DNA from: an uncultured Alphaproteobacteria bacterium
Lineage (GTDB): Bacteria > Pseudomonadota > Alphaproteobacteria > RF32 > CAG-239
Length of the DNA stretch: 64,000 nt
NCBI GenBank assembly: GCA_910584385.1
Contig: CAJUAK010000003.1
Coordinates: 9,206-73,205, forward strand
Direction of reading: 5' to 3'
In this document: piece after piece, positions 10,635-51,316 of the stretch
Numbering within the stretch: the first letter of the stretch is position 1
Layout: each line of letters starts with the position of its first letter
Translations under genes and position numbers: made by a program
Notes under the pieces: generated by a model
What the model was told of the DNA's origin: nothing
What the model saw: only the letters and a program-made list of their open reading frames with translations
Database searches by the model: none

Positions 10635-10690
10635 TATCTCTTGTCCATTATTAAAAACTAAGAGGATAATATAAAATCGGCATTATAAAT

Positions 10691-11350
10691 TCAATAATTA
10701 TTTTGCAAATTAAGCTGATTATTCTTTTCGGCAGAAACTGCCAAATCCTCCAAATCTTCAAGGAACCAGGAAATGTCTTCGTCATTTGCCGCAATCATCC
10801 CGTAGAATTTTCCCCGGTAAGATAAGATGAGGCTGCTTTCAGCCAATTTTATGTCAATAATCTGCAGCTGCCCGCCGTTATCGCGAATTCTCAGGCTGAA
10901 CGGGATAACGCTGCTTTGCTGCCCGCCCATAATTTTCCCCACATCAACAACGGCAGAAACTTCCGCTTCATTGCCGCGGATTTCCACCCGGGTGATTTCA
11001 TATATAATTTTTGAAACATCAAAATCCAGCGGAAATGTTTTATATAACCCCAGCGCATAACGCTTAAACAAGGGCAAATATTGCTGCTGTTGCTCAGGGC
11101 TCATTTCCTTCCAGTATTTTCCAACGACAAATTTCCCTACATAATCCAAATCCACATGGTTAAGAAACAATTCGTCAAGGGCGGCATATTTTTCTTCTGC
11201 ATTTTTCATGTTAAAAGTGTTCAACAGGCGCTCCCCTTTATCCTGCGCCCAGGCTCGCACATCTTTTTCCGTCATGGAAGCTGAGGCGTTTTCCCAACAA
11301 AAAACGCTTAAAAAAAAGATAATAAGTTTAAGAAATTTCTTACTTTTCAT
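10691..11350 (-). CDS. MlaC/Ttg2D-family phospholipid-binding periplasmic protein
   Basis: Signal peptide, plus the D...V..F..G..W......Q...Y...F...L...Y pattern of the toluene-tolerance Ttg2D family. Confidence 0.65.
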   Translation of the reverse strand: MKSKKFLKLIIFFLSVFCWENASASMTEKDVRAWAQDKGERLLNTFNMKNAEEKYAALDELFLNHVDLDYVGKFVVGKYWKEMSPEQQQQYLPLFKRYALGLYKTFPLDFDVSKIIYEITRVEIRGNEAEVSAVVDVGKIMGGQQSSVIPFSLRIRDNGGQLQIIDIKLAESSLILSYRGKFYGMIAANDEDISWFLEDLEDLAVSAEKNNQLNLQNNY

Positions 11351-11396
11351 AAATTTTGCCTTATAGTATTTCCATCTTGGTTTATTATAGCATAAA

Positions 11397-21377: not shown

Positions 21378-21458
21378 TGGCTTTAATCTATTACAATTTA
21401 TAAAAAAATCAAAAGAAAATTTAGGCTTTTAACAAAAATAGGATGACAACTATTTTTA

Positions 21459-21486
21459 TTGACAAAATTTCCAAATTATATACAAT
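21459..21486 (+). promoter_or_regulatory. Sigma70-like promoter inside the 5' end of the track ORF
   Basis: TTGACA (21459-21464), 16-nt spacer, TACAAT (21481-21486). This argues that the real start is the ATG at 21521. Confidence 0.45.
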
Positions 21487-21520
21487 AATGCCAAAATATT
21501 TAACTCGGGGTATTTGCAAT

Positions 21521-34586: not shown

Positions 34587-36023
34587 ATGAAAAAATCCTG
34601 GTATAAATTTTTAGGCATTCACTTTATTCTTTGGAGCATTATTCCCCTATTGCGCGGCAGCCTGCCCATGGACAGCATTGAAGCAATTGTCTGGGGACAA
34701 ATCGGCGGGCTGGGAACAAATAAGCACCCGACATTTTCAGGGTTTCCCGCAGATTTCTTTTATTGGCTTTCCGGCGGCAGCGACTGGGCAATTTATGCCT
34801 TGAGCCAACTCTTTATTTTGCTTGGTTTTATTTATATTTTCCGTTTGGCAAAACTTTTTCTCAACGAAACAAAAGCCATTCTTTCCGTTATGCTTTTGGA
34901 AGGCGTTATCTATTATGGCTTTGCTTCTGCGGAATATAACGTAAATATTGTTTCTTTGGCACTTTGGCCGATGGCTTCCTTCTATTTCTGCCGCGCAGTA
35001 TTGGAAGGGCGCAAAGCGGACTGGGCATGGTTTGGATTGGCCGCCGGCGCCAACTTATGGAATAAGTATGTCAGCGGCATTCTCTTCCTGGCTATGGCAA
35101 TGTATCTCCTCTTTACAAGAAACGGGCGCAAGCAGCTTAAATCTTTCGGGCCTTATTGCAGCGCGGCCATTGCGGCTGTTGTTATCGCACCCCATGTTTA
35201 TTGGCTTTACAAGCATGATTTCTTTGTTATTTCATACTTTATGAGCCGAAGCGGCGAAAGCGGCGCTTGGTACGGGCATTTGCTCTACCCCTTGAAATTT
35301 ATACTAGCCCAGCTCGCTGCCGGAGCTTTGGCATTTATCATCTTCTTTGTTGCTTTCTTTGGCGCAAAAAAACAAAAAAACACCATGAGCCATCAGAAAA
35401 ACCAATTGCTTTTCTATTTGGGAATTTTACCGCTCATTTTGTTTGCGGGAACAGCGCTTATAAGCGGTTCTCCCCTTAAAAGCATGTGGGGTTCGCCGCT
35501 TCTCTATATGCTTGGCATTTTACTTTTTGCCGGCTTTAATTTTGAGCTTAAAGAAAACACCGTTAATAAAGCCATTCGCGGCGTTTATGCCTCTATGGCT
35601 TTGCTTGGCTTTGCCGCAGCAATGGTTTATTTTTTGAATAAAAGCGAAAAAATGCATTTTCCCAGAAATGATTTTGCTTATCAGGTTATGGAAAAGTGGA
35701 AAGCAGAAACAAATAATGCACCGTTGCCTTATACGGGCGGCGAAATCTGGTATGCGGCAAACCTTTCCTTGACGAGCCCCGACCATCCTTTTGTTATCTT
35801 GGACACTAACTTGAAAAACAACCCCTGGGTGGCGGATAAGGACCTTTATGCGAAAGGCGCCGTCATTTTTGTGGGACGCCCGGATGACTACGCCAGCGCC
35901 CACCAAAAATATCTGGCTGTTTCTCCGTTATTTTCTCAAAATATTACTTTTAAAAACCGGATTGGAAAATCCAAAAGCAAAAATGTTTACTTCTTTATTA
36001 TCTATCCGGGAGGAGGTTTCTAA
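34587..36023 (+). CDS. GT39/GT83-type (ArnT-like) polytopic membrane glycosyltransferase
   Basis: 478 aa with about 11 predicted TM stretches and an N-terminal PMT_2-like loop. First gene of a translationally coupled operon. Confidence 0.7.
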   Translation: MKKSWYKFLGIHFILWSIIPLLRGSLPMDSIEAIVWGQIGGLGTNKHPTFSGFPADFFYWLSGGSDWAIYALSQLFILLGFIYIFRLAKLFLNETKAILSVMLLEGVIYYGFASAEYNVNIVSLALWPMASFYFCRAVLEGRKADWAWFGLAAGANLWNKYVSGILFLAMAMYLLFTRNGRKQLKSFGPYCSAAIAAVVIAPHVYWLYKHDFFVISYFMSRSGESGAWYGHLLYPLKFILAQLAAGALAFIIFFVAFFGAKKQKNTMSHQKNQLLFYLGILPLILFAGTALISGSPLKSMWGSPLLYMLGILLFAGFNFELKENTVNKAIRGVYASMALLGFAAAMVYFLNKSEKMHFPRNDFAYQVMEKWKAETNNAPLPYTGGEIWYAANLSLTSPDHPFVILDTNLKNNPWVADKDLYAKGAVIFVGRPDDYASAHQKYLAVSPLFSQNITFKNRIGKSKSKNVYFFIIYPGGGF

Positions 36024-36988
36024 TGGCAAAAGAAAAGTTAAGCATTGTTGTTTCTGCTTACAACGAAGAGGCTAATATTGCCGCTTTATATAAAGAATTG
36101 CAAAAAACAATAAAGAAACTTCCCTTGAAAAAGGTTGAAATCATTTTTGTAAATGACGGCAGTTCCGATAAAACCTATGAAGAATGCCTGAAATTGCAAA
36201 AAAAAGACGCTTCTGTTAAAATTGTTAACTTCCAACGCAATTTCGGACATGAGATTGCTATGACAGCCGGCATGGATTATGCCAAAGGGGATGCCGTTGT
36301 CTTTATGGATGCCGATTTGCAGCATCCGCCGGCATATATTGAACAAATGGTAAAAGCTTGGCAGGAAGGTTCTGAAATTGTTCTAACCAAAAGGGTAGAC
36401 AATCTTTCGACATCAAAACTCTATAAATTTATGGCTGCTTCCTTTTATAAAATATTAAATATGCTTTCGGATACGCATATTCCTGAAAAAATGCCGGATT
36501 TTCGGCTTCTTGACCGTAAATATGTGGAATTTTTGAAAAACTTTAACGAACATGACCGCCTTTTCCGCGGATTGCTCAGTTGGGCCATGCCCCGGGACAA
36601 AGTAACCGTATTGGATTTTGTGGCACCGGAACGTTTTGCCGGGGAATCTAAATATAATTTTGCCAAGAGCCTGCAATTGGCATTAAACAGCATTGTGCAG
36701 TTTTCAGTCAAGCCTTTGCGATTTTCAATTTATCTGGGAATTTTGACCGCGATGCTTGCCGGATTGCTTGGCATTTATGTGATTGCCGAACACTTCATTT
36801 TAAATAAGCCCACCCCTGGCTATGCTACAATTATGACAACCATTATTTTCATCGGTTCTATCCAATTAATCATGCTGGGGATTATTGGCGAGTATATTGG
36901 CAAAATCCATATGGAAGTTAAAAACCGCCCGCTTTATTTGGCTGAATTTATTGAGAAAGAAGAAAAAGATGCTCAAAAAAATCATTAA
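36023..36988 (+). CDS. GT2 polyprenyl-phosphate sugar transferase (ArnC/LgmA/FlmF2-like)
   Basis: LSIVVSAYNEEANI, VNDGSSD, FMDADLQHPP, and two C-terminal TM helices. The ATG overlaps the upstream stop (TAATG). Confidence 0.85.
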   Translation: MAKEKLSIVVSAYNEEANIAALYKELQKTIKKLPLKKVEIIFVNDGSSDKTYEECLKLQKKDASVKIVNFQRNFGHEIAMTAGMDYAKGDAVVFMDADLQHPPAYIEQMVKAWQEGSEIVLTKRVDNLSTSKLYKFMAASFYKILNMLSDTHIPEKMPDFRLLDRKYVEFLKNFNEHDRLFRGLLSWAMPRDKVTVLDFVAPERFAGESKYNFAKSLQLALNSIVQFSVKPLRFSIYLGILTAMLAGLLGIYVIAEHFILNKPTPGYATIMTTIIFIGSIQLIMLGIIGEYIGKIHMEVKNRPLYLAEFIEKEEKDAQKNH

Positions 36989-37805
36989 TGCCGACGATTT
37001 TGGGATTTCTCCCGGCGTCAACACCGCAATCGCCGAGGCTTATAAAGACGGTATTTTAAATTCGACCAGCATTATGATTAATTTAAAATATGTCAATCAC
37101 GCCTTGCATCTGGCACAATCTATGCCAAACTTGAATATCGGGCTGCATATAAACCTGACAAACGAAACGCCGCTTTCTCCGGCAGAGGAACTTCCGCTAT
37201 TAGTAAACGAAAACGGCAAGTTTAAAAATGGCTTTGTTAATTTGCTCTTGCTTTCTTTCCTTAAGCCGCAAGAGTTGCGCAAACAGGCAGAAATAGAAAT
37301 CCGCCGGCAAATAGAGCTTGCGAAAACAATGGGAATTAACCTTTCCCATATTGACAGCCACCGCCATATCCATATGATTCCGCTCTTGTTTGACGTGGTA
37401 AAAAAATTGGCAGAAGAATATCAAATTCCCCGCATCCGGGTTGTTAACGAAAATATATTCAACACCTTACGGCATAATTGGAGTTTTGATTTTCTGTTTG
37501 ACGGCGGGCTCATTAAATATATGATTTTAAGGATGCTGGCTTTTTACAACAGATACCCCAGCGATACTTATTTTTACACCATTCTCTACACCTGCAAAAT
37601 CGGACGCAATCGTTTTAACAAACTAAAAATCCCTGCAAAATACAAAGCAATTGAAGTGGGAATCCATCCCGGACACCCGGATATTGACCGCAATTACGGA
37701 AAGGACATCTTTGACAATAACCTTTTGAACCATTTCCGGGAAATTGAATTTAATACGGTGATGGATAAAAATATCCTAAACGAGATTGTTGAGAATGATC
37801 GTTAA
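36969..37805 (+). CDS. YdjC/ChbG-family carbohydrate deacetylase (NaxD/LgmC-like)
   Basis: MLKKIINADDFGISPGVN..I and HIDSHRHIH motifs. The start at 36969 overlaps the GT2 gene by 20 nt. Confidence 0.85.
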   Translation: MLKKIINADDFGISPGVNTAIAEAYKDGILNSTSIMINLKYVNHALHLAQSMPNLNIGLHINLTNETPLSPAEELPLLVNENGKFKNGFVNLLLLSFLKPQELRKQAEIEIRRQIELAKTMGINLSHIDSHRHIHMIPLLFDVVKKLAEEYQIPRIRVVNENIFNTLRHNWSFDFLFDGGLIKYMILRMLAFYNRYPSDTYFYTILYTCKIGRNRFNKLKIPAKYKAIEVGIHPGHPDIDRNYGKDIFDNNLLNHFREIEFNTVMDKNILNEIVENDR

Positions 37806-38211
37806 ATCTTATCTGTTTTTAGAAAAAATCTGGTTTCGTTTTAACCAAAAAATCCGTTTTATACTCGTGGGCGGGTTTAACACGGTTTTGGCATATTGCT
37901 TGTTTGCCGGACTGTATCAATTTGCCGGGCTGAATTATAACCTGGCATTAATTACGCAAAACATCATCACAATCAATGTTTCATTTTTGACTATGCGTTA
38001 TTATGTTTTTCAGAGCCATGGCATTTTCTGGCGAGAATATGTGAAAACCTTCAGCGTTTATATCGGCATGTATTTTTTAAATGCTTTTGTTTTAAATTTA
38101 TTGGTCATCGTTTTAAAACTTCCGCCTTTAATTGCCCAAGCTGTTTATTTAACGGTTTCCACCATCACAACTTATCTGCTGCATAAATATTTTTCTTTTC
38201 GTCGGCCGTAA
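37795..38211 (+). CDS. GtrA-family membrane protein
   Basis: IRFILVGGFNTVLAY with four TM segments. The ATG at 37795 overlaps the YdjC stop. Confidence 0.8.
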   Translation: MIVKSYLFLEKIWFRFNQKIRFILVGGFNTVLAYCLFAGLYQFAGLNYNLALITQNIITINVSFLTMRYYVFQSHGIFWREYVKTFSVYIGMYFLNAFVLNLLVIVLKLPPLIAQAVYLTVSTITTYLLHKYFSFRRP

Positions 38212-38213
38212 GC

Positions 38214-41200
38214 TTATAAACAAGTGATATATTTATACTCGCCGTTTACTGCACCAACCAATGCTGCTTGTCCCGGGCATTTGTCTTCCGAATAAGACAT
38301 TGCATCAACTTTGCAGTATTTTCCTTTGTTTTCCTTGGTCTTCTTATCTTCACAGATATCTGCCGTATCCTGAACCAAGAGCGGTCCGCAGCTGTCTCCA
38401 TAGAAGGTATAGTTGCCTTCTTCATTTGGCGTGCTTGAGCGGCGATAGCATCTAAGCGTGCCTTCTTTTAATTCGGTCGTATCATTTCTCATATTCTTAC
38501 AAGACGATTCTGTTTTATCATATGCCGCCGGACAATTGCAGGCACTATAACGCGTTACATTCATTGAGCCATTTTTAACGCTAAATACTTTTGAGCCTGA
38601 TAATTCATAGGGTTCCTTACAATTATCTTCCGTATAAGGATATTGATTCAGCATATCTTTACCGATAGCACATTTATATAATGACTGGTATGTGCAATTT
38701 TTGGTACAGCTTACCCAATTATCCGCAAATTCACAATTATTCTCAACTTCTGCCAATGAATAAGGGTAAGTACATTGCCCATTATCAACACAGGGACAAG
38801 AGCCATTTGTATATTTTTTTGTTCCATTACCGTTTTCACTACAGAAATCTGCCCCGGGCTGTATGTTGTCAGAACATGTCACTGTATATTTGCTGGAACA
38901 GCTGCATTTTTCATAAAGAGTTACTTCCTTGCCGTCAATGCTTGTCGTACAACCATTTCCTAACGAATATTTCGCCGCATTTTCCGCCGTATCTCCGGGA
39001 TCTGTGCCATCACATTTATATTTGAAAGTTTCTCCGCAAGAACAGCTGCTGTATTTTGGCGTTACGACCTTATTTACTCCGTTATAGGTAATTTGTTCGC
39101 AAACGGCTTTACTGTCGCTTGGCGTTGTATCGCAAGTTTTATTAAATTCCGAAAGGCATTTGCAGCCTTTATAAAAACTTTTTTTAGTGCCGCTGCTGTC
39201 CTGGCTTTCACAATAATCATCTGCAGAATCTGGTATCTGCCCATTGCCATCACAAGTTTCTCTATATGCGCTTTCGCAAGTACAGCTTGCATAAACCGTT
39301 CTGCCAGAGCTTCCATCCGCATTTAACGGCGTGCATGCTGTTTCTTTTTCCGTATTTGCTGGGCATTGCAGATAGCTAACCGGGCAACGGCATTCTTTAA
39401 AGAGTTTGTTACCCATCGAATCTATACACCAATCCGTTCCCAAGGCGTCAGCATTGTATCCGGAACAGGTATATTTATAACCGTTTGATTTACAATCTGA
39501 CGTATCTTGGCATTCAGCGTATTTTATGCTTCCGTCTGCCGATGTACAACTTCTCCCTTTACCAACCTGCTGTGCATTGCAGGTTTTAAATATATTTTCC
39601 TCATCTTCCGAGCAATCAGCATTACCAACACATTTGCTGTATAAAGTCCCTTTTTCAGAATCATAACAAGATGTTGCATCTTCTGCCGGAGATGTTGACG
39701 AGCAGGAACTGTAATTTGAAGGGCAACGGCATTTATAATTAACATTGCCCTCTGCTGTCAGGCAAGGCGCATATTTTTCCTGATTATCTGCACAAGCTTC
39801 ACGATGTTTATCGGTGCATGAGGCTGCCGGAACAGTACAAGATTGGTAATAAGAAACGCCGTTTAATACGCAGGCACTGCCAACCCCGACTTCTTTGTCT
39901 TTGCAGATTTTATTGTAACCAGAAGCACAAGTGCATTTTTCAAAATAAGCCTGTCCGTTGCGCGTGCACATATTAACGCCAACCTGTAACGGATCGTTGC
40001 AAACCTCAGCCTCACCGTTGCGGCATTCGTTTTTGCTTACGCAAGATTGGTAATAATTATCGCCATCCAAGCTGCAAGGTTTGCCAACGCCAATCAAATC
40101 TCCCGAGCATTTTACCCATCCGTCCGGACACTTGCATGATTTATAATTAACAACATTTCCCTGATTATCCTGGCAGCCGTTAACGCCTTCCTGAAAATCG
40201 CCCAGGCATTGCTTTACATGCTGCCAATCGCAATCACTCTCTTTGCATTGGTAATAACGCCCACCGCAGCCATTGTCTTTAACTATTCCGGTCGGTTTTA
40301 ATCCTGATGGACAACCATAATAGTAGTCTGTCCAGTTCTCAGGGAGGGGATCGGGTGCACATTCGCAACTGCGGTATTTTCCTTGGCAAGGTGTTCCGAC
40401 ACCCCGGAATCTCTCGCCATCGCAAAGCTGATTATATTCTTCAGGGCAACTACAAAAGGCATAATATGCCGTATTTGATCTTGTTCCATCCGCATTAAAC
40501 GGGCGGCAAGATCCTCCGGAAACCACACCATCCGTACATTGCTGGCATTTTCCTTTGCCCGCAGGACAGTCATCGCCGGCAACGGTAGATCCGGAAGTAT
40601 AAATGTAGCTCGGATGACATTCACATCCCGTATATTTTCCGCCGCATTGTTTTCCGGTCAAGATCATACGGATAGGACAATTTTCTTCATCATAAATATA
40701 CTCTCTTCCCGGTTTGCAAATGCAGTTATACCGTTCGTTCCCTTGAGGATCTACACACAAGTGGGGTTCTGCTCCCTCGCCCAGCCTGTTGACACATTCT
40801 TCCGCTGTTCGGGTAGTATCCGGTCCGCAGGCTTCAAGCGGAGCACGCTCGCAAAATTGATATAACTTTGTTTCATTTTTGAGGCAATATGGCGGATTCC
40901 CGTTAGGAACAGCTAAAGGATAAATGCATTCAGTTTTGTAAACTGAAGTATCACATTGGCATTCATATTTTTTCTCGCCATGAAGCGAACAAACGACCGG
41001 TACGGAAGCTGTTCCGGCGATGTCTTTGCATCCCTCTTCATTATCAGATAACAGGGCTCCGTTGCTGCAAGGCCTGTAAATACAAGAAGCATATAATAAC
41101 TTGCCACTATCAAGCTTACAATATTCTTCAACGCTTTCAGGAACCATGCTTTGTGCATAGCAATCTTGAACAACTTGTCCATCCCAATGATCTTCTTTTT

Positions 41201-44200
41201 TAGTTTTGCAGCCACATGCATATTTTATTTCTTTTTCATTATTATTTAAACATTCGTAAGATGCTGCCAAGGGGCCAAAATGTTCTTGACATTTTTGTTG
41301 CGTATCCGCCGTTATGCCGCTGCAAGCTTCATAAGTACAAATATATTTTGTCTTGTTTTCTGCCAAAGAAGCCCCTCTGACAATGCAGGTCCTTTGATTA
41401 TTGAGTTCTATTCCTTTGCAAGGCCTGTCGCTCAATGCTTCGTCCGATTCTAAAGAAACTGCCGAACAATCTGAAGCAATATCTAATTCAGAGTAAACCC
41501 AATCTTCTTCATTATCAGATTCTAAAGTACACGGATTAGCGCCTATCTCTCCCGGGAATAATTTACGGTAGCCTTCCGGACATTTGCAATACCAAGCAGC
41601 TGCACGCGGCCCGCTTAAATCGCTATATAAGCATAAATGAGAGGATGCACCGTCAACTTGTTGGCACACACTTTCCGAAGAATAGACTTTTCGCCCATCA
41701 CATTTATAGCTCTCGCTAATCCACTCGCCAGCTTTATCATTACAGGTTTCACCAACAGCAATCAGCTCTTCTCCTACTTCACAGAATGTGCACCCTTGCT
41801 CTTTGGTTTTAAACTCAACAGGGCACTGGCACATATAACGAGTCGATGAAGCACCGGCAATGCCACAGGCAACTGGATGCCGGACAAAAGATTTTATCTC
41901 AATGTCTTCCGGTTTTGGAGTCTCTGAAACTTTAACCGAAACACTTTGGAACGTTTGTTCACACAATGGGCTTTCCTGGCTGTCTGACGAACAAGGGATA
42001 CCACAATATTGATATTTGTTTTCTTGGTCATAATAACAAACGTGTCCGATACCCGACTCGCCATCCTGACACTCATTAGATGTCTTGTAGCCATCAATTT
42101 CTTTACAATTTCCCAATGCATCACAAATTATTTGCTTTGTTGGGCAAGAACAAACCTTATTAATCTTCGAATTTGTTTCATCCCAGCAGGCAGAATCCAT
42201 ATCTTTGGACTGGATACATTTTGGTGAAGTGCTTAAGGGCAGAAAACTGTCATCACAATCATAAGTTTCTACGGTAACGCCATTTTCTACGCTGGTTTTG
42301 GTTTTTGCCGTTCCTAGCCATTTGTCAAAGGCACAACAGGTAATACGATCGCCTGTACAGGTTTCGCTCATGCGGTGAGTGTCCTTGTTTGCACAATAAG
42401 TATCCGCACGCCAGTTTTTGCTGGATTTGCATTGCCCAATAGCAGGAGAATCTATTTCAAAACTCCCGGCTTCTAAACAATTATCCCCTAAAGGAGAAAA
42501 TTGACAGCAAGGATCTGTCGTTTTACAAGGTGTCGGCGTTCCTCTTTGTGAAGCCTTATTACAATAAAAATTATCATTTGCCGAATATGACCTATAATAA
42601 CCACTTTGATATGACTGCCATACTAAACCATATTGCCTTTTACTTTCAGGATTTTTTTGTCCTTTATCTGTAATTGTGTAAGCATATCGCCCTTCATTGC
42701 CATCTAACTCATCTACAATTTCATCATTTTCATCAAATATGTAATAGTCAAATTCATTCTGATAAAAGGCAGGATAACATTTCTTTTGAGTATTTGCAAT
42801 TTCAATACTATTTCCTACTTCCTGAGCTCTTTTCTGGCAACTTCCCTCTAAAGGCGTGGTAGAACCTTTTTCTACATAACAACATCTTTGATTTGCATTT
42901 AATTTATATGTACCATCAAACTTACAATTTGAAGCAACAAACCCATTCTCTACGCAATAAAAGCCACTTTCAGGCACGGCTTCCGTTCTGATGACTGAAC
43001 AAGAACCCTTTCCATCACGTGTATCGGCATTTCCAATAAATGTACTGCAACTGCTTGAAGAATCTGCATCCGCATTAAATTTGCAACAAAGGCGTTCATC
43101 TTCCGGAATATCTGTGCAGGAATAAGTAGGAACCGTTATTTTACTCTCATCATATTTTACAGGATACTCTCCTATTAACATCCCGTTTTCTTCAGATACT
43201 TTCCGAGCACAGAATTCGCCTTCTTTATGGATATACTGAATTTTACAACTGCTGCCTTCCGCTTTCGTATAACTCCGTGAACATAGGCGACCAGAATCTC
43301 CTGAAGGAAGATTATAACTATAAGGACCGGTTTGGAATCTTCCATCAATAACATGGCAGCAAACTGTCAAGGGAGAATCTGTCGTATTAGCCGGACAGTC
43401 TGTTTCATAATAGCCGGCTACTTGACATATGCCATCCAAAGTCGTGAAATTATCTTTATCGTTCAACTGGCAGAGACTGCTATCTTTTGATAAGGAAACC
43501 TCATAAGATTTTGATATTTCGCTATCACCACTTTTTATTGTTACCTTGCATTGCCGCTGTCCCCAAATATCCAGTTTGCAAAGCCCATAAATTATGGATT
43601 GGCATGCTTGAAAATCAGAAGCTATATTACAGTCAGCCACCACATATTTATCTTGGGCATTAGCGCTATTAAAGCAAAATTGCCCACTTTTGGGCGTTAA
43701 AACGCTTAAATCTTCATTATTAGCATCCTGGCATTGGTTCAGGATTTCCTTGCTGGTTGCTTTCCAATTGTTTGAGCACTGGATTGATGTATAATTATTT
43801 TCCTGAAAATAACAACATTTTGCAGCTGATTTTGTAGCTCCTGCCGTATCGTAAGAAACAGCAACACCATCTTTGGTATAACAACTGTTGAGCCATTTTC
43901 CGTTTGCATCTGCGCAATAATATCCCGTCTCAAAAGGAGGCTGTGCCTTTTCAATACACTTTCCCGTTCCTACATTATCCGGGTCTTCTTCCCAACTATC
44001 ATAACATGTTTCTTCGCCTTCATAATCAATAAACTCACTAGCAAATTCACAACACTTTTTTGCTCCTTTGGCTTCATCACAACTTCCGACATAGTAACCA
44101 TCTTCAGTAGCACAAAAGTGTCCATTGCTCGGCGCCATTTTTTGGGTACATAATGTTCCCTCCCAGGTATAGGCTGGACTGCAAAAACGCCAATGATTAT

Positions 44201-45794
44201 CATTTATATCTTCACTTTCAAAAGGTGTAATTGAGCAGCAACGAATTTCTTTATTATAATTTGCGGAACAAGGCTGTTGAACATATCCAGAAGCGGTATA
44301 ATCTAATGTTTTATTATGTAAATCTCCACCAGCTAAGGAGCAGGTTTGCCCTCCATCTTTTGACCAGAGATGATATCTCACACCGTCACTTAAAGTACAT
44401 TCAAATCCCCCTTTCTCATAAGGAGATTTCTTTCCCTCTGATTTACACTTTGGCCAAATTTCTTTGCCATCACAATATGCTGTTGTTGCGTAGTCACCCC
44501 ATATTAATGGTATTCTTGCAGAAGTTTTTTTAATACAAATACCTGTAGGGACATCCGCAAAAGCAAGGGTTTCGATATGGGAGGTTTGGGCGGAAGCCAT
44601 GTAAATTTTATTTTCTGCCGAAGCTTGGTTTTCGATATTGTCCTGGCAGGCTTCATTATCCGGATGGATATTGCCGCCGGGAACGGTATCATCCCGTTTT
44701 GAATCGCAAGAATCCAAGCAAAACTGGTTATAAACATTATCCGTGCCATTATGGTTATAATAGCATTTATACCCTTTCGGCGTTTGACTTGCCGTACATT
44801 TTTTATATATGGGGCCGTTATCATCAGCGGCGCAGCTGCAAAATGAAATTATACGCAAAGCGCTCCCTGATTTTGACATACATTTTGTTTCATTCTGCCC
44901 ATAGGGGCAAGAAACCGCCGCCATACCACTTTCAGAAGCATTTACAACAGAAGGGTATTCGCCCTGCAATGCCGCTAACTTTGCCTCGTCAACTTCTCCG
45001 CTGTCGGTTAAGGCATCTTGACGGAGAACATCTTTGCAATCTGGCAGGCAGTATTCATATTTATAAAAGTTTTCATTTACAGTATGGCTTAGCCCGGTCG
45101 AGGCGTCCAGCGCGGTTTGCGCATCCCAAGGGCAAGCTTTGAAACCGGCCGGATGCACTGCATAAGTTTTTTCATTACCGTCTTCTTTATAAGTTTCTGA
45201 TTGGCAAATGAAACCATAGGAGCTTTCTGCCATCGTTTCAGAATAAAACCGGCGCGCATCAATATTTGTTTCGCTGCTGTCGCCTGCATAATATTTATAT
45301 CTGGAGTTGCAGGTATAAGAATCATAAGGGGAGCCATTTAATTCGCATTGGCGCCAGGGAACGCTGCTTTGTGTTCCATCCCGCCCGTTTACGGAAAGCC
45401 GGTCGTTTTTTCCGCAGCCTTCATCGCCGGCGCAGGCAACATATTTGCCCAGGCAGGAACGCCCTGAGCCCGTACTGCCTGAACAGTCTTCGCTATAATT
45501 ATGCGGGCAATCGCAACGCCATGCATCTCCCATGCCGCAGCTTACCACTGAAAAAACCGCACCGGCCGGGTTTAAATCGCTATATTTGCTTTGGCAAAGG
45601 GCAGCAGCTTCAACTTTGGTCGCCGCTTCAACATAATAGTCGCCGCATCCAGTTACCGAATAAGTAGAATGCTTAGAGTTATTTGCAGGCGCCGTAAAAA
45701 TCGTCTCTGTAATGGGCACAACGGCAGAACTGGCCGGATGCGCTTGCGCAAACACCAATATCGATAAGAATATTAGCAAACTATTCTTAAACAT
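38214..45794 (-). CDS. Giant secreted cysteine-rich modular protein (2,526 aa), family unknown
   Basis: Uninterrupted 7,581-nt ORF. It has a Sec signal peptide (MFKNSLLIFLSILVFAQA) and about 214 Cys by hand count. There are 8 CC-doublet modules and 21 C-x-C modules. I saw no TM segment, beta-barrel or known sorting signal. Confidence 0.85.
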   Translation of the reverse strand: MFKNSLLIFLSILVFAQAHPASSAVVPITETIFTAPANNSKHSTYSVTGCGDYYVEAATKVEAAALCQSKYSDLNPAGAVFSVVSCGMGDAWRCDCPHNYSEDCSGSTGSGRSCLGKYVACAGDEGCGKNDRLSVNGRDGTQSSVPWRQCELNGSPYDSYTCNSRYKYYAGDSSETNIDARRFYSETMAESSYGFICQSETYKEDGNEKTYAVHPAGFKACPWDAQTALDASTGLSHTVNENFYKYEYCLPDCKDVLRQDALTDSGEVDEAKLAALQGEYPSVVNASESGMAAVSCPYGQNETKCMSKSGSALRIISFCSCAADDNGPIYKKCTASQTPKGYKCYYNHNGTDNVYNQFCLDSCDSKRDDTVPGGNIHPDNEACQDNIENQASAENKIYMASAQTSHIETLAFADVPTGICIKKTSARIPLIWGDYATTAYCDGKEIWPKCKSEGKKSPYEKGGFECTLSDGVRYHLWSKDGGQTCSLAGGDLHNKTLDYTASGYVQQPCSANYNKEIRCCSITPFESEDINDNHWRFCSPAYTWEGTLCTQKMAPSNGHFCATEDGYYVGSCDEAKGAKKCCEFASEFIDYEGEETCYDSWEEDPDNVGTGKCIEKAQPPFETGYYCADANGKWLNSCYTKDGVAVSYDTAGATKSAAKCCYFQENNYTSIQCSNNWKATSKEILNQCQDANNEDLSVLTPKSGQFCFNSANAQDKYVVADCNIASDFQACQSIIYGLCKLDIWGQRQCKVTIKSGDSEISKSYEVSLSKDSSLCQLNDKDNFTTLDGICQVAGYYETDCPANTTDSPLTVCCHVIDGRFQTGPYSYNLPSGDSGRLCSRSYTKAEGSSCKIQYIHKEGEFCARKVSEENGMLIGEYPVKYDESKITVPTYSCTDIPEDERLCCKFNADADSSSSCSTFIGNADTRDGKGSCSVIRTEAVPESGFYCVENGFVASNCKFDGTYKLNANQRCCYVEKGSTTPLEGSCQKRAQEVGNSIEIANTQKKCYPAFYQNEFDYYIFDENDEIVDELDGNEGRYAYTITDKGQKNPESKRQYGLVWQSYQSGYYRSYSANDNFYCNKASQRGTPTPCKTTDPCCQFSPLGDNCLEAGSFEIDSPAIGQCKSSKNWRADTYCANKDTHRMSETCTGDRITCCAFDKWLGTAKTKTSVENGVTVETYDCDDSFLPLSTSPKCIQSKDMDSACWDETNSKINKVCSCPTKQIICDALGNCKEIDGYKTSNECQDGESGIGHVCYYDQENKYQYCGIPCSSDSQESPLCEQTFQSVSVKVSETPKPEDIEIKSFVRHPVACGIAGASSTRYMCQCPVEFKTKEQGCTFCEVGEELIAVGETCNDKAGEWISESYKCDGRKVYSSESVCQQVDGASSHLCLYSDLSGPRAAAWYCKCPEGYRKLFPGEIGANPCTLESDNEEDWVYSELDIASDCSAVSLESDEALSDRPCKGIELNNQRTCIVRGASLAENKTKYICTYEACSGITADTQQKCQEHFGPLAASYECLNNNEKEIKYACGCKTKKEDHWDGQVVQDCYAQSMVPESVEEYCKLDSGKLLYASCIYRPCSNGALLSDNEEGCKDIAGTASVPVVCSLHGEKKYECQCDTSVYKTECIYPLAVPNGNPPYCLKNETKLYQFCERAPLEACGPDTTRTAEECVNRLGEGAEPHLCVDPQGNERYNCICKPGREYIYDEENCPIRMILTGKQCGGKYTGCECHPSYIYTSGSTVAGDDCPAGKGKCQQCTDGVVSGGSCRPFNADGTRSNTAYYAFCSCPEEYNQLCDGERFRGVGTPCQGKYRSCECAPDPLPENWTDYYYGCPSGLKPTGIVKDNGCGGRYYQCKESDCDWQHVKQCLGDFQEGVNGCQDNQGNVVNYKSCKCPDGWVKCSGDLIGVGKPCSLDGDNYYQSCVSKNECRNGEAEVCNDPLQVGVNMCTRNGQAYFEKCTCASGYNKICKDKEVGVGSACVLNGVSYYQSCTVPAASCTDKHREACADNQEKYAPCLTAEGNVNYKCRCPSNYSSCSSTSPAEDATSCYDSEKGTLYSKCVGNADCSEDEENIFKTCNAQQVGKGRSCTSADGSIKYAECQDTSDCKSNGYKYTCSGYNADALGTDWCIDSMGNKLFKECRCPVSYLQCPANTEKETACTPLNADGSSGRTVYASCTCESAYRETCDGNGQIPDSADDYCESQDSSGTKKSFYKGCKCLSEFNKTCDTTPSDSKAVCEQITYNGVNKVVTPKYSSCSCGETFKYKCDGTDPGDTAENAAKYSLGNGCTTSIDGKEVTLYEKCSCSSKYTVTCSDNIQPGADFCSENGNGTKKYTNGSCPCVDNGQCTYPYSLAEVENNCEFADNWVSCTKNCTYQSLYKCAIGKDMLNQYPYTEDNCKEPYELSGSKVFSVKNGSMNVTRYSACNCPAAYDKTESSCKNMRNDTTELKEGTLRCYRRSSTPNEEGNYTFYGDSCGPLLVQDTADICEDKKTKENKGKYCKVDAMSYSEDKCPGQAALVGAVNGEYKYITCL

Positions 45795-45813: not shown

Positions 45814-45853
45814 ATACTGCTATGCAGTATAACAATTTTACTTTTTTTGGCAA
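45814..45853 (-). promoter_or_regulatory. Promoter of the giant gene with an overlapping perfect palindrome (candidate operator)
   Basis: Minus strand: TTGCCA (45848-45853), 16-nt spacer, TATACT (45826-45831). ATACTGC-TAT-GCAGTAT (45814-45830) spans the -10 and the start region. Confidence 0.5.
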
Positions 45854-45903: not shown

Positions 45904-46107
45904 TCAAATCAGGCTTTGCTTCTCTTCTGATTGCAATTCTTTAATATAACTGCGAATATCATTTTCGCATGTGCCGCAACAAGTGGAACATCCTGTTTTT
46001 TCTTGGATCTGTTTAAAATCTTTGGCTCCGGATTCAAATGCTTTTCTGATTTCTTCGGCCGTAACATGCATGCAGTGGCAGAGCACCGTATTATCTTTTA
46101 TATCCAT
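45904..46107 (-). CDS. bfd: Bacterioferritin-associated ferredoxin-like [2Fe-2S] protein
   Basis: 67 aa. VLCHC..VT..EI...........I....G.STCCGTC is the Bfd cysteine pattern. Confidence 0.8.
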   Translation of the reverse strand: MDIKDNTVLCHCMHVTAEEIRKAFESGAKDFKQIQEKTGCSTCCGTCENDIRSYIKELQSEEKQSLI

Positions 46108-46448
46108 TTTTATCTCCTTTTTTAATATACTTTGTATATATGTTTACGCTGTGCCAAATAACACCGCCTGCTTCATAAAAAATATTCTATCTTTAAGCCC
46201 TCACATTTAAAGCGTGCTGTTTTTTCTATTGCTGGATTCTATTTTTTCTTACTTCGACGGCGCCGTCATATTCCAACTCATTGATTTTACATAACTTCAA
46301 AACAAAGGCTTTAATTATGTCCTTCTTTTACTAACCAATTTCTACACCATGTACGATTTTTTCGATATCTGATATTGTTTTTTGCTGATATACTTTTTTA
46401 AAATGCATCACCATAATATAAGCAACAAATAAACACGGAGACATGATT

Positions 46449-46670
46449 ATGAAAAATGATATCAGAGATACGAAAAATGACGTTATTGAAAGGAATATTG
46501 TTTTAATCAGCAAAATCTATGAAAGCTTTGAAGTCTTGGAGGAAACCCTTGGAGGCCTTAAGCTTGAAGAACCCCTCTTTATTATTAACGCTGCAAAAAA
46601 ATCTTTTGCAAACAGTGTTTATAACAGCATTAAAGGCAATGACCTTTATAAAGCGCATTTCAAAAATTAA
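46449..46670 (+). CDS. Small hypothetical protein, paralog A (73 aa)
   Basis: MKNDIRDTKNDVIERNIVLISKIYESFEVLEETLGGLKLEEPLF... The SD ACGGAG lies 8 nt upstream of the ATG at 46449. About two-thirds identical to paralog B. Confidence 0.7.
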   Translation: MKNDIRDTKNDVIERNIVLISKIYESFEVLEETLGGLKLEEPLFIINAAKKSFANSVYNSIKGNDLYKAHFKN

Positions 46671-46739: not shown

Positions 46740-46879
46740 ATATTCTAAAAACCGTCCATATAAAACAGATACTCAAGCATAGAGTGTACGAATTTTACGA
46801 TAGCTGTTGCCGTTTTTTACTTATATACTTTTTTTGCGCCCCGTTTAATAATATAAGCATGACAACAAAGGAGGCTAAA

Positions 46880-47101
46880 ATGAAAAAAGATATGAGAGAC
46901 GAAACAGATAACGTTATTGAAAGAAATATCGTTTTAATCGGCAAGATTTACGAAAGCTTTGAAGCTCTGGAAGAAACTCTCGGAACCCTCAAGCTTGAAG
47001 AACCTCTCTTTTTAACTTATGTTGCCAAAAAAGCTTTCGCAAACAGCGTTTACAACAACCTCAAAAACGATAACACATACAAGACTAGGTTTAATAACTA
47101 A
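46880..47101 (+). CDS. Small hypothetical protein, paralog B (73 aa)
   Basis: MKKDMRDETDNVIERNIVLIGKIYESFEALEETLGTLKLEEPLF... The SD AAGGAGG lies at 46868-46874. Confidence 0.7.
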   Translation: MKKDMRDETDNVIERNIVLIGKIYESFEALEETLGTLKLEEPLFLTYVAKKAFANSVYNNLKNDNTYKTRFNN

Positions 47102-47169: not shown

Positions 47170-49122
47170 TTACTTCATATAGTTCAACAAAGACGCATTT
47201 AAGGCTTGTTGTAAAGCGGCATATGAACTATTTAGCGTGTTATAAGCCATTATTGCCTTGGTCAAAGCCTCTTCCCTGTTAACATTCTTAAGCGAATCGA
47301 CACTATTTTCCAGATTTGTTTTAACCTGAGTCAAATTATCATTGGCATTGTTCAAAACAATATAGTTAGAATTTATTTTCGCCTGAATGGTATATAAATC
47401 GGCATTTTTTCCTTCCGCGTTTTTACCGCCGTTAAAAATACCTTCGCTTACCAAATCCAATGCCTCGTTTATTCTGTCAACGACTGTCTGCGGATCTATT
47501 AAGCTGTCCAAATCATCCGCAGGGTCTCTTGTGTCGACCAAATTGCCCTGAGCGATGGTTCCCAAAGCTCTGAACAATTTTTCAAAGGCCGGGTCTTTGG
47601 CATTGATATCCATCGTTACCGACTGGTTTTCGGTTATCATTCTTTCTGTCGACAAATCTCCGCCGCGGTAATAAGATTCGGCGCTCATTTCCCAGTTAGG
47701 AGAATCAATTGTAATATCAATCCAGCGGTCAGGATTCATCGTTACATAAAGCTCTTTGCCATCTGCGCTGACGCCGGTTACCTGGACATTTTCAGCAATA
47801 TTCCGGTTTATATCCTGAAAACCGTTCATGTTTATAACTGCCCCCACCGGAAAAGAAGTGCTGAAAGTTACATTATTTGTAACGCCGCCGTCGGTATATT
47901 CCCCATTGGGAAGTGTCGGGTCAGCCTGAGGGCGAATCGGCGTTTTTTCATCGAAAGTTATTGTCCGCCCGTCTTCTGAAACAGATTTTATGATATAAGC
48001 ACCGTTTTTATCATCTCCGGCATTATTAATCACCAGCGTATCTCCGGCGCTCAAAGAATTGAAGGCTCCGTATTCCTGCGCATAAATTGTGTTATTCGCC
48101 GCATCAAAAGTGATGTCTCCGGTTGTTTTTTCATTAGCCTTCACGGCTTCTTTTAAGAAAGCTCCGGCATTTTCTGCGGTAATAACGCCATGGTTACCGC
48201 CTTCAGGCGCTGTGCTAAGCGTTATTTTTCCGGTCTCGCGGGAAGTAACATTCCGGTTGCTCAAATTGGCACTGGTATTTTGCGGGTATTGGATATTTAT
48301 TCCGTCATAATAGCTCTGGAACTCTTCCAATGTGTTAAACGGGAAGCTGATGGGCGCCTGTGAGGAAACGCCGCCGCCAAATATATATTTCCCGTTAACA
48401 TATGTGTTTAAGCTGTCCGCAATCATTTTCATTGCCGAAAAGGCGCTGGTTTGCAACTGCTGCATATTAAGGTACTGGTCTTTGCCCATGATATGCGGTT
48501 CTCCCGTTGCCACATTTGGCGAATCCAAAACCGTCGATGTGCCGTTTACCGTATACAGCGGAAAAGTAAACTTGTTCCCTTCAAAAGCAAAATCCGGATT
48601 ATCTGCCGAAAATTTCTGCTTTAAAGCTTCAACAACTTCCGTACCATAATCATCTGAATTCGGATCAAGAGCGCCGATATCAATATTTGTATCCAACGCG
48701 GCGTCTGCTGCAAAAGTATATTGCGTCCCGTTTAAGGTCAAAGTCTTCCCGATCAGGCTTTCGCCTTTGCTAAAGACGAGCTCGCCTCCTGTATAATCCG
48801 GGGTAATGTTCGGCAAATCCTGGCCGCTGAAATCATTTAGAATCGATTTGAAATCATTAATCGACTTGTCAATCGCTTCCACAGAAGTATTTAACGCTTT
48901 TATCTCGACTTCCAGAATTTTGTTATTTTCCATAAAGTTGCTGGTAACGCCCAGAGCGGCCTCCAGATTGACAATGTTATAGGCACTCATGCCATAACCT
49001 GAATAATTCGGCGCTTTCAAGCCTGTTGTAGCCTGGAATGTATATAAATCAAGCTGATATTGGTTATTTAACGTGTGCCGCGTTAAATTCATCTGACTCG
49101 CATAAGTGGGAACCCTAACCAT
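47170..49122 (-). CDS. flgL: Flagellar hook-associated protein 3 (FlgL), unusually long (about 650 aa)
   Basis: The N-terminal VRVPTYASQMNLTRHTLNNQYQLDLYTFQATTGLK and the C-terminal flagellin-like helix ...YNTLNSSYAALQQALNASLLNYMK. The SD AGGAGG (49129-49134) precedes the ATG at 49122. Confidence 0.8.
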   Translation of the reverse strand: MVRVPTYASQMNLTRHTLNNQYQLDLYTFQATTGLKAPNYSGYGMSAYNIVNLEAALGVTSNFMENNKILEVEIKALNTSVEAIDKSINDFKSILNDFSGQDLPNITPDYTGGELVFSKGESLIGKTLTLNGTQYTFAADAALDTNIDIGALDPNSDDYGTEVVEALKQKFSADNPDFAFEGNKFTFPLYTVNGTSTVLDSPNVATGEPHIMGKDQYLNMQQLQTSAFSAMKMIADSLNTYVNGKYIFGGGVSSQAPISFPFNTLEEFQSYYDGINIQYPQNTSANLSNRNVTSRETGKITLSTAPEGGNHGVITAENAGAFLKEAVKANEKTTGDITFDAANNTIYAQEYGAFNSLSAGDTLVINNAGDDKNGAYIIKSVSEDGRTITFDEKTPIRPQADPTLPNGEYTDGGVTNNVTFSTSFPVGAVINMNGFQDINRNIAENVQVTGVSADGKELYVTMNPDRWIDITIDSPNWEMSAESYYRGGDLSTERMITENQSVTMDINAKDPAFEKLFRALGTIAQGNLVDTRDPADDLDSLIDPQTVVDRINEALDLVSEGIFNGGKNAEGKNADLYTIQAKINSNYIVLNNANDNLTQVKTNLENSVDSLKNVNREEALTKAIMAYNTLNSSYAALQQALNASLLNYMK

Positions 49123-49132
49123 CATACACCTC

Positions 49133-51316
49133 CTATACAATGCTCATGAGCATATCTAAAATTTCTTTTGCCGCCGTAAATGTTTTTGCGCAAGCGGCGT
49201 AAGTTTGCTGGTAGATTATCATTTGAGACAATTCTTCATCAATATCGACGCCGCTGACCTGCGCTTCCTTTAATGAAATTGAATAAGTCAACTCCTCCTG
49301 ATAAGCCAACGCGCTCTGCGCATTGCTGGTTTGCGACGCAATGTTTCCCACAAAAGTGGATGCATAGTTGCCTAATGTTGTTTTGGTGGATGCGATTGTT
49401 CCCGCCTGCCCAAAATCAACTGTTGTGGTAAAGACTTTTGCCATATCGTTTGCAATATTATTTGAAGACGGATTCATCTGATATTCGCCGCTGTCCGGGT
49501 TAAATTCCGGCGTGCCTGAGGATATCAGGCTCGGATTAAGCTGCAAGTCCTCCCGAACGCCGATATTTCCGGATACGCTGGTATAAGACGGATTTAAGCC
49601 AATCCGGTTAATCAGCGTTGATGCGTTGGCAACTCCCGGATTTTCGGTTATTTCCATTTGTCCGCCGGTATTATTGATAATCCTCAGCATATACCCGCTT
49701 CCATTCGGAACCAAAGAAGCAACAATATTCTGGTTTAAATCTTCATTAGAATTTATTTTATTTACAATATCCTGCAAACTATCGGTGCTGGTTATGGTTA
49801 TGCTTCCGGCGATGCCTCCGGCTTCCTCCGTGGAAAACTGCCAGATAACCGGATTTCCATGGACGCCTAAATTTGCATTTTTGCTCAGGACTTTAGAATC
49901 ATAAACATATTCAGAATCGCTTACAAAAAAGTCGTTTAGCCCTAAAAAGCTTGAAAATCCTTCGAATTCCCGGTTGTAATAATCATCTCCCGTGGCATCA
50001 AAACTGACTGTTACATCCTGCTGGGCGCTTCCCGGCGTGGACGATGCCTCATCCATAATTGAAATGGTATATTCGCTGTTTTTGGTATCAATATAAAAAT
50101 GTCCGCTCTTATCTACCCCGACAACGGCATCCGTTAATCCGGGACCGCTCGGCGAACGCAGCCAGTCTTGAATAGTTGATGCAAGATTGTCAACCGTATC
50201 CCCGTCATCGGGAAAACCCATGCCGCCCAGCAAAGTTGTCGAACTAACCTCTTTGCCATCCTTGTCAAAAATTGTAAAACGCACATCGCCATTGCTTATT
50301 TTGACTTGCTGGCGCGCCGAATTTACAAATTCTCTGGTTCCGCTCAACTCATAAGGCATCGAAGGGTATGCCGTTCCGCGGTTGTGTATCTGGTTGACAG
50401 AGTCTTGAAGATTCCCTGCCAATTGGTCAAGCTGTGTCTGCAATGAGGGCAGAATTTCATCACGGACTTCGATCAGCCCCTTTAGCTCGCCATCTTTTAT
50501 TTTAGAAGTGATATCAACACCGTCAACATAAATCCCGTTAATTCCGCCGCCGGCATAAGATATTGTCGGGCTGGCCTGCGCAATGGCGCCATGCGTCAAA
50601 TAATGCGGGTCTTTATCAAGAAGCGTCATGCCGCTGCTTTGAATAACAATTTCGCCGTTATTGCGTTCAAAATAAGAAATGTCCAACATTTCGCTTAAAT
50701 CGCGCAGGGCGGCATCGCGCTGGTCAAGCAAGTCGGCTTTTCCATCATAGCCCAATACCGTATATTTTACGATATCATCATTTAATTCATCAATCGTCTG
50801 CAGGGTTTTATTGATTTTCTGAACCGCATTTTCGACATCGACATCAGCATCGCCGCGCAGCTTTTGTATTTCCGTCGTGAGGGAGTTCAACCTTCCTGCA
50901 AGGCTTTGCGCCGTGTTTAACAATCCATAACGCCCTGAAGCCGATGTTACATCCGCGGCAAAAGTATCAAAAGCCGTTTGCAGGCTTGCCACATTGGCAG
51001 CAATTGAATTATTGCTGGAAGGCGTTCCAAGCAGAAGTTCTGTTTTGCTTAAATAATCATGCTGCGCGCTTAAATTTTTCTGTTGCGAATTTGCCGCCAG
51101 ATAGCTTTTTAACAAGCCCTCATCAACTTTACGCCCGATTTCGCCTAATTCCACGCCACAGCTATAGCCGGCCAGAACCAGATTGTTTTGCTGGGCAACT
51201 TTTCTGGTGTAATTTGGCGTATCAACATTCGCAATATTTTGGCTGACAAGCCCTAATTGGCTTTGAGCCACTTTCATTCCGCTTATCGATGTTTGTAATC
51301 CTGCTAATAATGACAT
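49133..51316 (-). CDS. flgK: Flagellar hook-associated protein 1 (FlgK)
   Basis: MSLLAGLQTSISGMKVAQSQLGLVSQNIANVDTPNYTRK at the N-terminus, and the C-terminal SGVDIDEELSQMIIYQQTYAACAK. Confidence 0.92.
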   Translation of the reverse strand: MSLLAGLQTSISGMKVAQSQLGLVSQNIANVDTPNYTRKVAQQNNLVLAGYSCGVELGEIGRKVDEGLLKSYLAANSQQKNLSAQHDYLSKTELLLGTPSSNNSIAANVASLQTAFDTFAADVTSASGRYGLLNTAQSLAGRLNSLTTEIQKLRGDADVDVENAVQKINKTLQTIDELNDDIVKYTVLGYDGKADLLDQRDAALRDLSEMLDISYFERNNGEIVIQSSGMTLLDKDPHYLTHGAIAQASPTISYAGGGINGIYVDGVDITSKIKDGELKGLIEVRDEILPSLQTQLDQLAGNLQDSVNQIHNRGTAYPSMPYELSGTREFVNSARQQVKISNGDVRFTIFDKDGKEVSSTTLLGGMGFPDDGDTVDNLASTIQDWLRSPSGPGLTDAVVGVDKSGHFYIDTKNSEYTISIMDEASSTPGSAQQDVTVSFDATGDDYYNREFEGFSSFLGLNDFFVSDSEYVYDSKVLSKNANLGVHGNPVIWQFSTEEAGGIAGSITITSTDSLQDIVNKINSNEDLNQNIVASLVPNGSGYMLRIINNTGGQMEITENPGVANASTLINRIGLNPSYTSVSGNIGVREDLQLNPSLISSGTPEFNPDSGEYQMNPSSNNIANDMAKVFTTTVDFGQAGTIASTKTTLGNYASTFVGNIASQTSNAQSALAYQEELTYSISLKEAQVSGVDIDEELSQMIIYQQTYAACAKTFTAAKEILDMLMSIV

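Follow-up and report, generated by a model that had tools for sequence, protein, structure and literature searches.

A single minus-strand open reading frame (ORF; 38214-45794) in a 64,000-nucleotide (nt) stretch of contig CAJUAK010000003.1, from an uncultured gut alphaproteobacterium and referred to here over its full length as the window, encodes a giant protein in which Cys–Cys (CC) doublets recur through one part of the chain and occur nowhere else. This raises the question of what the doublets belong to. We propose, with a probability of about 0.6, that they are the last two Cys of an undescribed six-Cys, all-β, disulfide-stapled module, present in nine copies in an exported protein that serves a structural or adhesive role outside the cytoplasm. 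By sequence, the CC module is a new family; the architecture to which it belongs, that of the secreted cysteine-rich repeat proteins, is known. The encoded protein has 2,526 amino acids (aa) and is acidic (isoelectric point (pI) 4.8), and its 214 Cys, an even total, make up 8.5% of its residues.

A script run on the translation placed CC doublets at residues 519, 581, 660, 812, 903, 971, 1096 and 1153 with no others, in agreement with a first-pass annotation of the sequence; from the first doublet to the last they occupy 42333-44240, which is exactly the codons from residue 1154 back to residue 519. We compared the doublets with 5,000 shuffles, taking residues 441-1160 as the doublet region. 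Shuffling of the whole protein gave 18 ± 3.9 doublets, showing that CC is depleted overall. Outside residues 441-1160 we observed none where 13.9 were expected (0 of 5,000 shuffles), and within them eight where 4.1 were expected (P = 0.04 on the count alone). Successive doublets were separated by 4, 4, 10, 4, 4, 4 and 4 Cys, a series that none of the 5,000 shuffles reproduced. The strong signal in the shuffling is this periodicity.

The doublets had been described in the first-pass annotation as closing eight units of five conserved Cys each, with the odd count taken as a hint of disulfides between modules. We found that four single Cys, not three, precede each doublet, giving six Cys per unit. 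The first of them, C1, lies 10-25 residues upstream of the Cys with which the earlier units began and had been overlooked, and both the count of five and the inter-module idea followed from that omission. We also found nine units rather than eight, because the long fourth interval contains two (U4a and U4b). The nine modules run head to tail through residues 445-1158, and their 9 × 6 = 54 Cys are all of the Cys in that segment, so inter-module disulfides are not needed and the idea was dropped. The modules and the regions that frame them are as follows.

45741..45794, minus strand: Sec-type signal peptide MFKNSLLIFLSILVFAQA, residues 1-18, read from the sequence
44223..44462, minus strand: U1, residues 445-524, Cys 450, 466, 485, 509, 519, 520
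44037..44198, minus strand: U2, the most compact module, residues 533-586, Cys 538, 549, 561, 572, 581, 582
43800..44021, minus strand: U3, residues 592-665, Cys 597, 613, 627, 638, 660, 661
43566..43793, minus strand: U4a, without a doublet, residues 668-743, Cys 673, 688, 707, 722, 731, 739
43344..43565, minus strand: U4b, residues 744-817, Cys 749, 775, 790, 800, 812, 813
43071..43298, minus strand: U5, residues 833-908, Cys 838, 850, 862, 893, 903, 904
42867..43064, minus strand: U6, residues 911-976, Cys 916, 932, 947, 957, 971, 972
42492..42854, minus strand: U7, residues 981-1101, Cys 986, 1006, 1078, 1090, 1096, 1097
42321..42494, minus strand: U8, residues 1101-1158, Cys 1106, 1122, 1134, 1146, 1153, 1154
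38217..42320, minus strand: C-terminal half with CxC modules, residues 1159-2526, the family's conserved core, about 40% identical to that of orthologues

The Cys spacings in Cys-anchored segments define the framework C1-x10-25-C2-x11-18-C3-x9-14-C4-x5-21-C5C6-x-[FVI], with two exceptions, a 71-aa C2–C3 loop in U7 and a 30-aa C3–C4 loop in U5. C1 and C6 lie 45-112 aa apart, and doublets follow one another at 57-152 aa. The order C-C-C-C-CC holds in eight of the nine modules; U4a, in which C5 and C6 are seven residues apart (C5-x7-C6), belongs to the same family. When seven window units and three orthologue modules were aligned with MAFFT, the six Cys emerged unaided as invariant columns. Several other positions are semi-conserved: a Gly 2-3 residues before C2, G-x-[FY] preceding C3, a [DN]-G turn following C3, an aromatic residue 4-5 residues before C4 and a hydrophobic residue (F, V, I or L) two residues past C6. 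The motif proposed earlier, G-[FY]-[FY]-C ... [DN]-G ... C ... C-C-x-[FV], was likewise found in most units. The modules have pI values of 4.3-7.8 and net charges of +1 to -8. No DNA-level repeats were found in the module region, which indicates that the duplications are old.

Similarity at the level of residues was assessed by leave-one-out scoring, in which a hidden Markov model (HMM) built from eight units was scored on the ninth, with 200 shuffles that kept the Cys in place as the control. The highest scores were those of U2 (20.6 bits; 0 of 200 shuffles reached it), U6 (14.5 bits; 3 of 200), U4a (12.9 bits; 0 of 200, with a shuffle mean of 1.3 ± 2.3) and U3 (12.1 bits; 0 of 200), followed by U8 (10.4 bits; 13 of 200) and U1 (8.3 bits; 5 of 200). 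The remaining units scored 5.5 bits (U5; 20 of 200), 5.1 bits (U4b; 36 of 200) and -3.9 bits (U7; 149 of 200). U1, U2, U3, U4a and U6 thus beat at least 97.5% of the Cys-fixed shuffles and U8 beat 93.5%, so that similarity beyond the Cys is common to these six of the nine units. The diverged tandem module suspected earlier is therefore real, with positions conserved beyond the doublet in the alignment and leave-one-out scores above shuffles in six of nine units.

We modelled U2 and U3 with AlphaFold2, using input alignments made of the window's own units only. Both models were all-β, with a predicted local distance difference test (pLDDT) score of 67.7 for U2 and of 62.3 for U3, the latter with six β-strands. 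In both of these low-confidence models, C3 and the CC pair lie within β-strands. Neither model had a significant Foldseek match in the PDB (best E = 1.3 for one and zero hits for the other), and the non-significant top matches, which were β-hairpin repeat proteins (choline-binding and CROP repeats), were not interpreted. Given the low quality of the models, this null result is an absence of evidence and no proof of a new fold.

Protein searches made the giant protein look like an orphan. A word-indexed search queried with the whole protein or with an eight-orthologue alignment returned only the protein's own 90% cluster, and the same search with a conserved 118-aa block returned nothing, not even the window protein. 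When residues 430-1165, which hold the CC region, were run through phmmer on 1.84 billion representatives, only the query itself came back, and a contig scan queried with the giant protein yielded no confirmed relative. Orthologues do exist in contigs, so the apparent orphan status reflects the limit of the word index and not biology; orphan-like results of such searches are untrustworthy for long, Cys-rich queries. Using tblastn on FlgI loci, we found, in the loci L062 (CAG:495), L004, L043, L008, L030 and L020, orthologues with about 40% identity across the C-terminal half, and a metagenome scan with the conserved 118-aa block (A1) recovered full-length orthologue genes. When eight orthologues were aligned, the Cys that could be placed in all eight showed no variation from residue 1724 onward, and the N-terminal half is essentially unalignable. 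Module number differs between species as follows.

Window species: 2,526 aa, eight CC modules plus the CC-less U4a
CAG:495-like (L085, L086, L089): 2,047 aa, two clean six-Cys modules plus one degenerate module
L004-like (L004, L088): about 2,505 aa, one CC module
L091: 2,383 aa, no CC modules

U8 matches the last CC module of the CAG:495-like protein L085 Cys for Cys, and both lead into the same first CxC module; in a BLASTP comparison, window residues 1093-1328 aligned with L085 residues 511-712 (E = 5e-6 in a small search space). From these alignments, we assign U8 as the positional orthologue of the last CC module in the CAG:495-like protein. Together with the differing module counts, this match indicates that the module predates these species and that the array in the window is a lineage-specific expansion. 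The nine-unit HMM scored only 7.5-14 bits on the orthologue modules, which means that a database-wide search with a single-module profile would not be discriminating. The window protein, L085, L004 and L091 have one short motif near the N terminus in common, although their N-terminal halves are otherwise unalignable; the motif may serve in sorting or processing.

45700-45740, minus strand: motif V-[VT]-P-I-x-x-T after the signal peptide, residues about 19-32

Within the window species the protein varies little. Full-length strain variants carried 0-4 substitutions, none of them at a Cys, and hypervariability within the species was rejected on these numbers. The identical giant-protein sequence is indexed in 87 blocks of a public assembly collection, in which the assemblies that we inspected were human gut metagenomes; one fetched occurrence was an ENA assembly.

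The Sec signal, the six Cys per module, the even Cys total, the all-β prediction and the lack of metal motifs together point to three disulfides within each module. Vicinal Cys in a β-strand direct their disulfides to opposite faces and CxC pairs to the same face, as in trans- and cis-defensins, respectively (PMC9138766), and our model of opposite-face stapling is built on this rule. Our inferences about whether and how disulfides form, about rigidity, and about where the protein resides and what it does run as follows. Each module would be oxidised after export to form three internal disulfides. The vicinal C5C6, on the final β-strand with side chains pointing toward opposite faces, would staple the two preceding Cys-closed hairpins (the C1–C2 and C3–C4 regions), one on each side. 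The result would be a compact, protease-resistant bead whose loop lengths are free to vary (5 to 71 residues here), and nine such beads could act as a rigid spacer or stalk linking the N-terminal region to the conserved CxC half. The number of modules is evolutionarily plastic, with 0, 1, 3 and 9 copies in the four species. As a whole, the giant protein most likely works outside the cytoplasm in a structural or adhesive capacity, as a coat or stalk.

A more far-reaching version of this proposal is one that we consider doubtful. It would make the CC module either a new disulfide-rich fold unrelated to solved structures or the first bacterial case of trans-defensin-like, opposite-face CC stapling. 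Copy number (0, 1, 3 or 9) would then tune the length of a species-specific surface stalk across a family of giant Cys-rich proteins restricted to uncultured gut Alphaproteobacteria, and the stalk would serve attachment to host mucus or to other cells.

Several observations weigh against the proposal of a disulfide-stapled, surface-exposed module. U4b, U5 and U7 are tied to the other units by Cys framework and position alone. The module models are of low confidence (pLDDT 62-68). There are no Dsb genes in the 64-kb window, and the habitat of the host is the largely anoxic gut. We recognised no outer-membrane secretion or anchoring signal in the giant protein, so it could remain periplasmic. 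Finally, strain variants of the window species are nearly identical, which speaks against rapid antigenic change of the loops within it.

The alternative that survives best concerns the relationship between the CC modules and the C-terminal half. There, modules carry the motif [YF]-x-C-x-C-P-x-x-[YFW]-x2-3-C, and the units contain 4 or 8 Cys and end in CxC-x6-8-C; the giant protein holds 21 CxC. A Cys-closed hairpin, C-x1-4-[DNEK]-G-x1-5-[YFW]-x1-3-C, occurs in 13 copies, compared with 2.4 ± 1.5 in Cys-fixed shuffles, and these copies lie in the N-terminal region, in two CC modules (U2 and U3) and in the CxC half. This distribution weakly hints that the two module types may be built from the same hairpin element. 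Taken further, the CC modules would be CxC/hairpin modules that lost one residue between two Cys and share their fold and origin. Such a deletion is plausible and not exclusive of a six-Cys stapled module, and we regard it as unlikely. Consistent with it, the C3–C4 hairpin of the CC module (C-A-x-x-[DN]-G-x-[YW]-x-x-S-C) resembles the hairpins CSLDGDNYYQSC and CVLNGVSYYQSC of the CxC half, the hairpin motif exceeds chance expectation over the N-terminal, CC and CxC regions taken together, the best local match between the two profiles in hhalign lands exactly on the C3–C4 hairpin, and CxC modules occupy the equivalent region in orthologues. However, the hhalign comparison of CC and CxC profiles was not significant (probability <1%, E = 0.36-0.69), and the CC-module HMM was negative on the CxC region (-5 to -14 bits). 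The two frameworks also differ (C-C-C-C-CC against 4- or 8-Cys units ending in CxC-x6-8-C), and CC and CxC pairs are expected to have opposite disulfide geometry (PMC9138766).

The genomic setting raises an alternative that we judge improbable, namely that the giant protein is a periplasmic, flagellum-associated component whose CC modules form part of a disk- or sheath-like accessory structure. The gene is surrounded by chromosomal housekeeping and flagellar genes (flgI, flgJ, flgN, flgK, a flgL-like gene, a Mur ligase, tRNA synthetases, PBP1 and RNase E). FlgI of the window is 72-83% identical to FlgI of many metagenome-assembled genomes of uncultured gut Alphaproteobacteria, including Proteobacteria bacterium CAG:495 and Candidatus Scatocola. 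We compared three giant-gene loci.

Window: giant gene at 38214-45794
L085: giant gene at 6146-12289
L004: giant gene at 2217-9797

In all three species, the gene directly adjoins the flgI-flgJ-flgN-flgK-flgL cluster and an RND efflux pump, in different arrangements, and the combination of a Sec signal peptide with no recognisable outer-membrane export signal would also suit a periplasmic part. By contrast, searches of Pfam, NCBIfam and PDB sequences revealed no similarity to known flagellar proteins, the gene is oriented differently with respect to the flg genes in each species, and of 80 FlgI loci in the clade only about 7 have a giant gene within 10 kb. The very fast divergence of the protein is atypical of flagellar core parts. 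A promoter-like site about 30 nt upstream of the ATG further suggests that the giant gene is its own transcription unit.

45826..45853, minus strand: putative sigma-70-like promoter TTGCCA-16-TG-TATACT, identified by its match to the consensus at 10 of 12 positions

It is more improbable still that the Cys bind metals in the manner of metallothioneins, zinc ribbons or Fe-S proteins instead of forming disulfides. The very high Cys content would suit such a role, as would a small BFD-like [2Fe-2S] ORF just upstream. However, the protein carries a Sec signal peptide for export. CxxC occurs only twice, compared with 15.1 ± 3.6 expected from shuffles, which is a strong depletion; CxxCH has a count of 0 in the whole protein; and there are only 25 His. 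These numbers argue against zinc-finger, thioredoxin-like or haem sites. In addition, exactly six Cys per module together with Gly and aromatic hairpin residues are typical of disulfide-rich β domains, and no Pfam metal-binding family was matched.

We also considered whether the module could be a diverged representative of some known CC-containing family, such as the β-defensins and trans-defensins, WAP, granulin or EGF-like domains, and found this very improbable. Pfam gave no family for the whole giant protein at E ≤ 1 and, for the CC region and eight single units at E ≤ 10, nothing but one spurious DUF match (E = 0.08); the three orthologues had no credible Pfam family, only a sub-threshold DUF4999 line (E = 0.36). 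In the same Pfam scans, EGF-like, WAP, granulin, TIL and other Cys-rich models were not matched. NCBIfam likewise gave zero families for the giant protein at E ≤ 1; the models without a match at that threshold include TIGR02232, which we take to be the Myxococcus cysteine-rich repeat. Neither the unit profile nor the whole protein found a match among PDB sequences. With the Foldseek result, these searches bear out the first-pass impression of a domain that could not be recognised. A literature search for cysteine-rich proteins of this gut alphaproteobacterial clade found no description of them.

What favours a known family is the resemblance to β-defensins, which share the C-C-C-C-CC order with the CC in a β-strand. 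Defensins have a spacing of approximately C-x4-8-C-x3-5-C-x9-13-C-x4-7-CC, a C1-C5/C2-C4/C3-C6 disulfide map and a three-stranded antiparallel sheet, and the spacings of the CC modules (10-25, 11-18, 9-14 and 5-21) depart from this pattern. With six Cys in the order C-C-C-C-CC, an all-β prediction and the CC predicted in a β-strand, the modules resemble β- and trans-defensins; a vicinal pair so placed directs its two disulfides to opposite faces (PMC9138766). They differ in that their loops are about twice to three times as long, in being acidic to neutral (pI 4.3-7.8) rather than cationic, and in occurring as nine tandem copies in a giant bacterial protein of 2,526 aa, with no HMM, sequence or fold match; single units have no family match in Pfam at E ≤ 10. 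The last alternative, that the doublet pattern arises by chance from the abundance of Cys, accords with a CC count in the region only about twice expectation (P = 0.04) and is almost certainly wrong, being refuted by the leave-one-out HMM scores, the MAFFT alignment, the presence of the same module in orthologues and the shuffles, in which neither the four-Cys periodicity (0 of 5,000) nor the lack of CC outside the region (0 against 13.9 expected) arose.

The reading of nine disulfide-stapled modules places the giant protein beside several known kinds of Cys-rich protein. Secreted cysteine-rich repeat proteins (SCREPs; PMC6262176) have been reported in both bacteria and eukaryotes and form a descriptive class, not a homologous family. 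The giant protein is like them in having a signal peptide followed by tandem, diverged and presumably disulfide-stabilised domains; the architecture found here is a signal peptide, read from the sequence, and nine tandem six-Cys modules. It is unlike the characterised members described for that class, which are small two-domain venom toxins (PMC6262176), in carrying nine modules within 2,526 aa as well as a second module type. In Peribacteria, large (mean 1,655 aa), signal-peptide-bearing, Cys-rich and unannotated proteins have been reported and interpreted as serving rigidity or attachment (PMC4736985). The giant protein is similarly large, signal-peptide-bearing, very Cys-rich, unannotated and from an uncultured bacterium, a likeness by description only. 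The Peribacteria proteins belong to another phylum and, unlike the giant protein, vary between strains (PMC4736985).

EGF-family Pfam models had no match in the whole protein at E ≤ 1 or in a 333-aa CxC segment at E ≤ 10. The CxC modules recall the EGF core C4-x-C5-x2-G-[FYW], but their units have 4 or 8 Cys and not 6, and the CC modules do not resemble EGF. Giardia VSP and Paramecium surface antigens, from gut-dwelling and free-living protists respectively, are large surface or secreted proteins with periodic Cys and variable loops and are presumably protease-resistant. The giant protein shares with them its size, export, periodic Cys frameworks and variable loops; unlike these CxxC-rich eukaryotic proteins, it is bacterial and CxxC-depleted. 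Pfam-A, which presumably includes models for VSP and Paramecium surface antigens, gave the giant protein no match.

The CC module and the CxC module are two building blocks of a family of giant proteins that neither Pfam nor NCBIfam covers. Its hosts are gut Alphaproteobacteria of a poorly known clade, seen here as metagenome-derived sequence only. Secreted cysteine-rich tandem repeats are well known as a general kind; it is the sequence family of the CC module that is new. A Cys-anchored alignment of the modules could seed a new domain model with which to annotate such proteins. An exported protein with 214 Cys implies a robust oxidative folding system, despite a mostly anoxic habitat. If CC pairs staple opposite faces and CxC pairs the same face, their side-by-side occurrence in one protein would be a natural experiment in disulfide architecture.

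Downstream of the giant gene lies a convergent gene cluster, which resembles a lipid A aminosugar modification cluster. Its role as a glycosylation system for the giant protein was rejected as unsupported, and we do not link the two because the cluster is not beside the gene in the L085 and L004 flanks.

34587-38211, plus strand: PMT_2 (ArnT-like), GT2, YdjC and GtrA-like genes, ending 2 nt from the giant-gene stop codon

Three small ORFs sit between the flgL-like gene and the giant gene. Two of them are tandem paralogues, about 73 aa as called in L001, that share NVIERNIVLI.KIYESFE.LEETLG.LKLEEPLF. A longer ORF downstream of flgK has flagellin/FlgL-like termini, no Pfam match at E ≤ 0.001 and is probably a divergent hook-associated protein 3. 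Elsewhere in the window, a 436-aa ORF also has no Pfam family at E ≤ 0.001.

45904-46107, minus strand: BFD-like [2Fe-2S] ORF, 67 aa, just upstream of the giant gene
46443-46670, plus strand: first small paralogous ORF
46784-47101, plus strand: second small paralogous ORF
47170-49140, minus strand: 656-aa ORF with flagellin/FlgL-like termini
21443-22753, plus strand: 436-aa ORF

We also observed further Cys-rich repeat proteins in related gut Alphaproteobacteria, without similarity to the giant protein or a credible Pfam domain.

L020 7361-9865, minus strand: Cys-rich repeat ORF
L020 5402-7264, minus strand: Cys-rich repeat ORF
L038 3-1811: Cys-rich repeat ORF
L029 3-1385: Cys-rich repeat ORF
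L039 7792-9213: Cys-rich repeat ORF

The complete ORFs among them begin with hydrophobic, signal-peptide-like N termini, and such Cys-rich proteins seem to be characteristic of the clade. One such protein contains five nearly identical 38-aa repeats of eight Cys, with a CC in each (CEEMGQKTCNGSCIAASACCTDTDCGSGKKCSSGSCIDKT).

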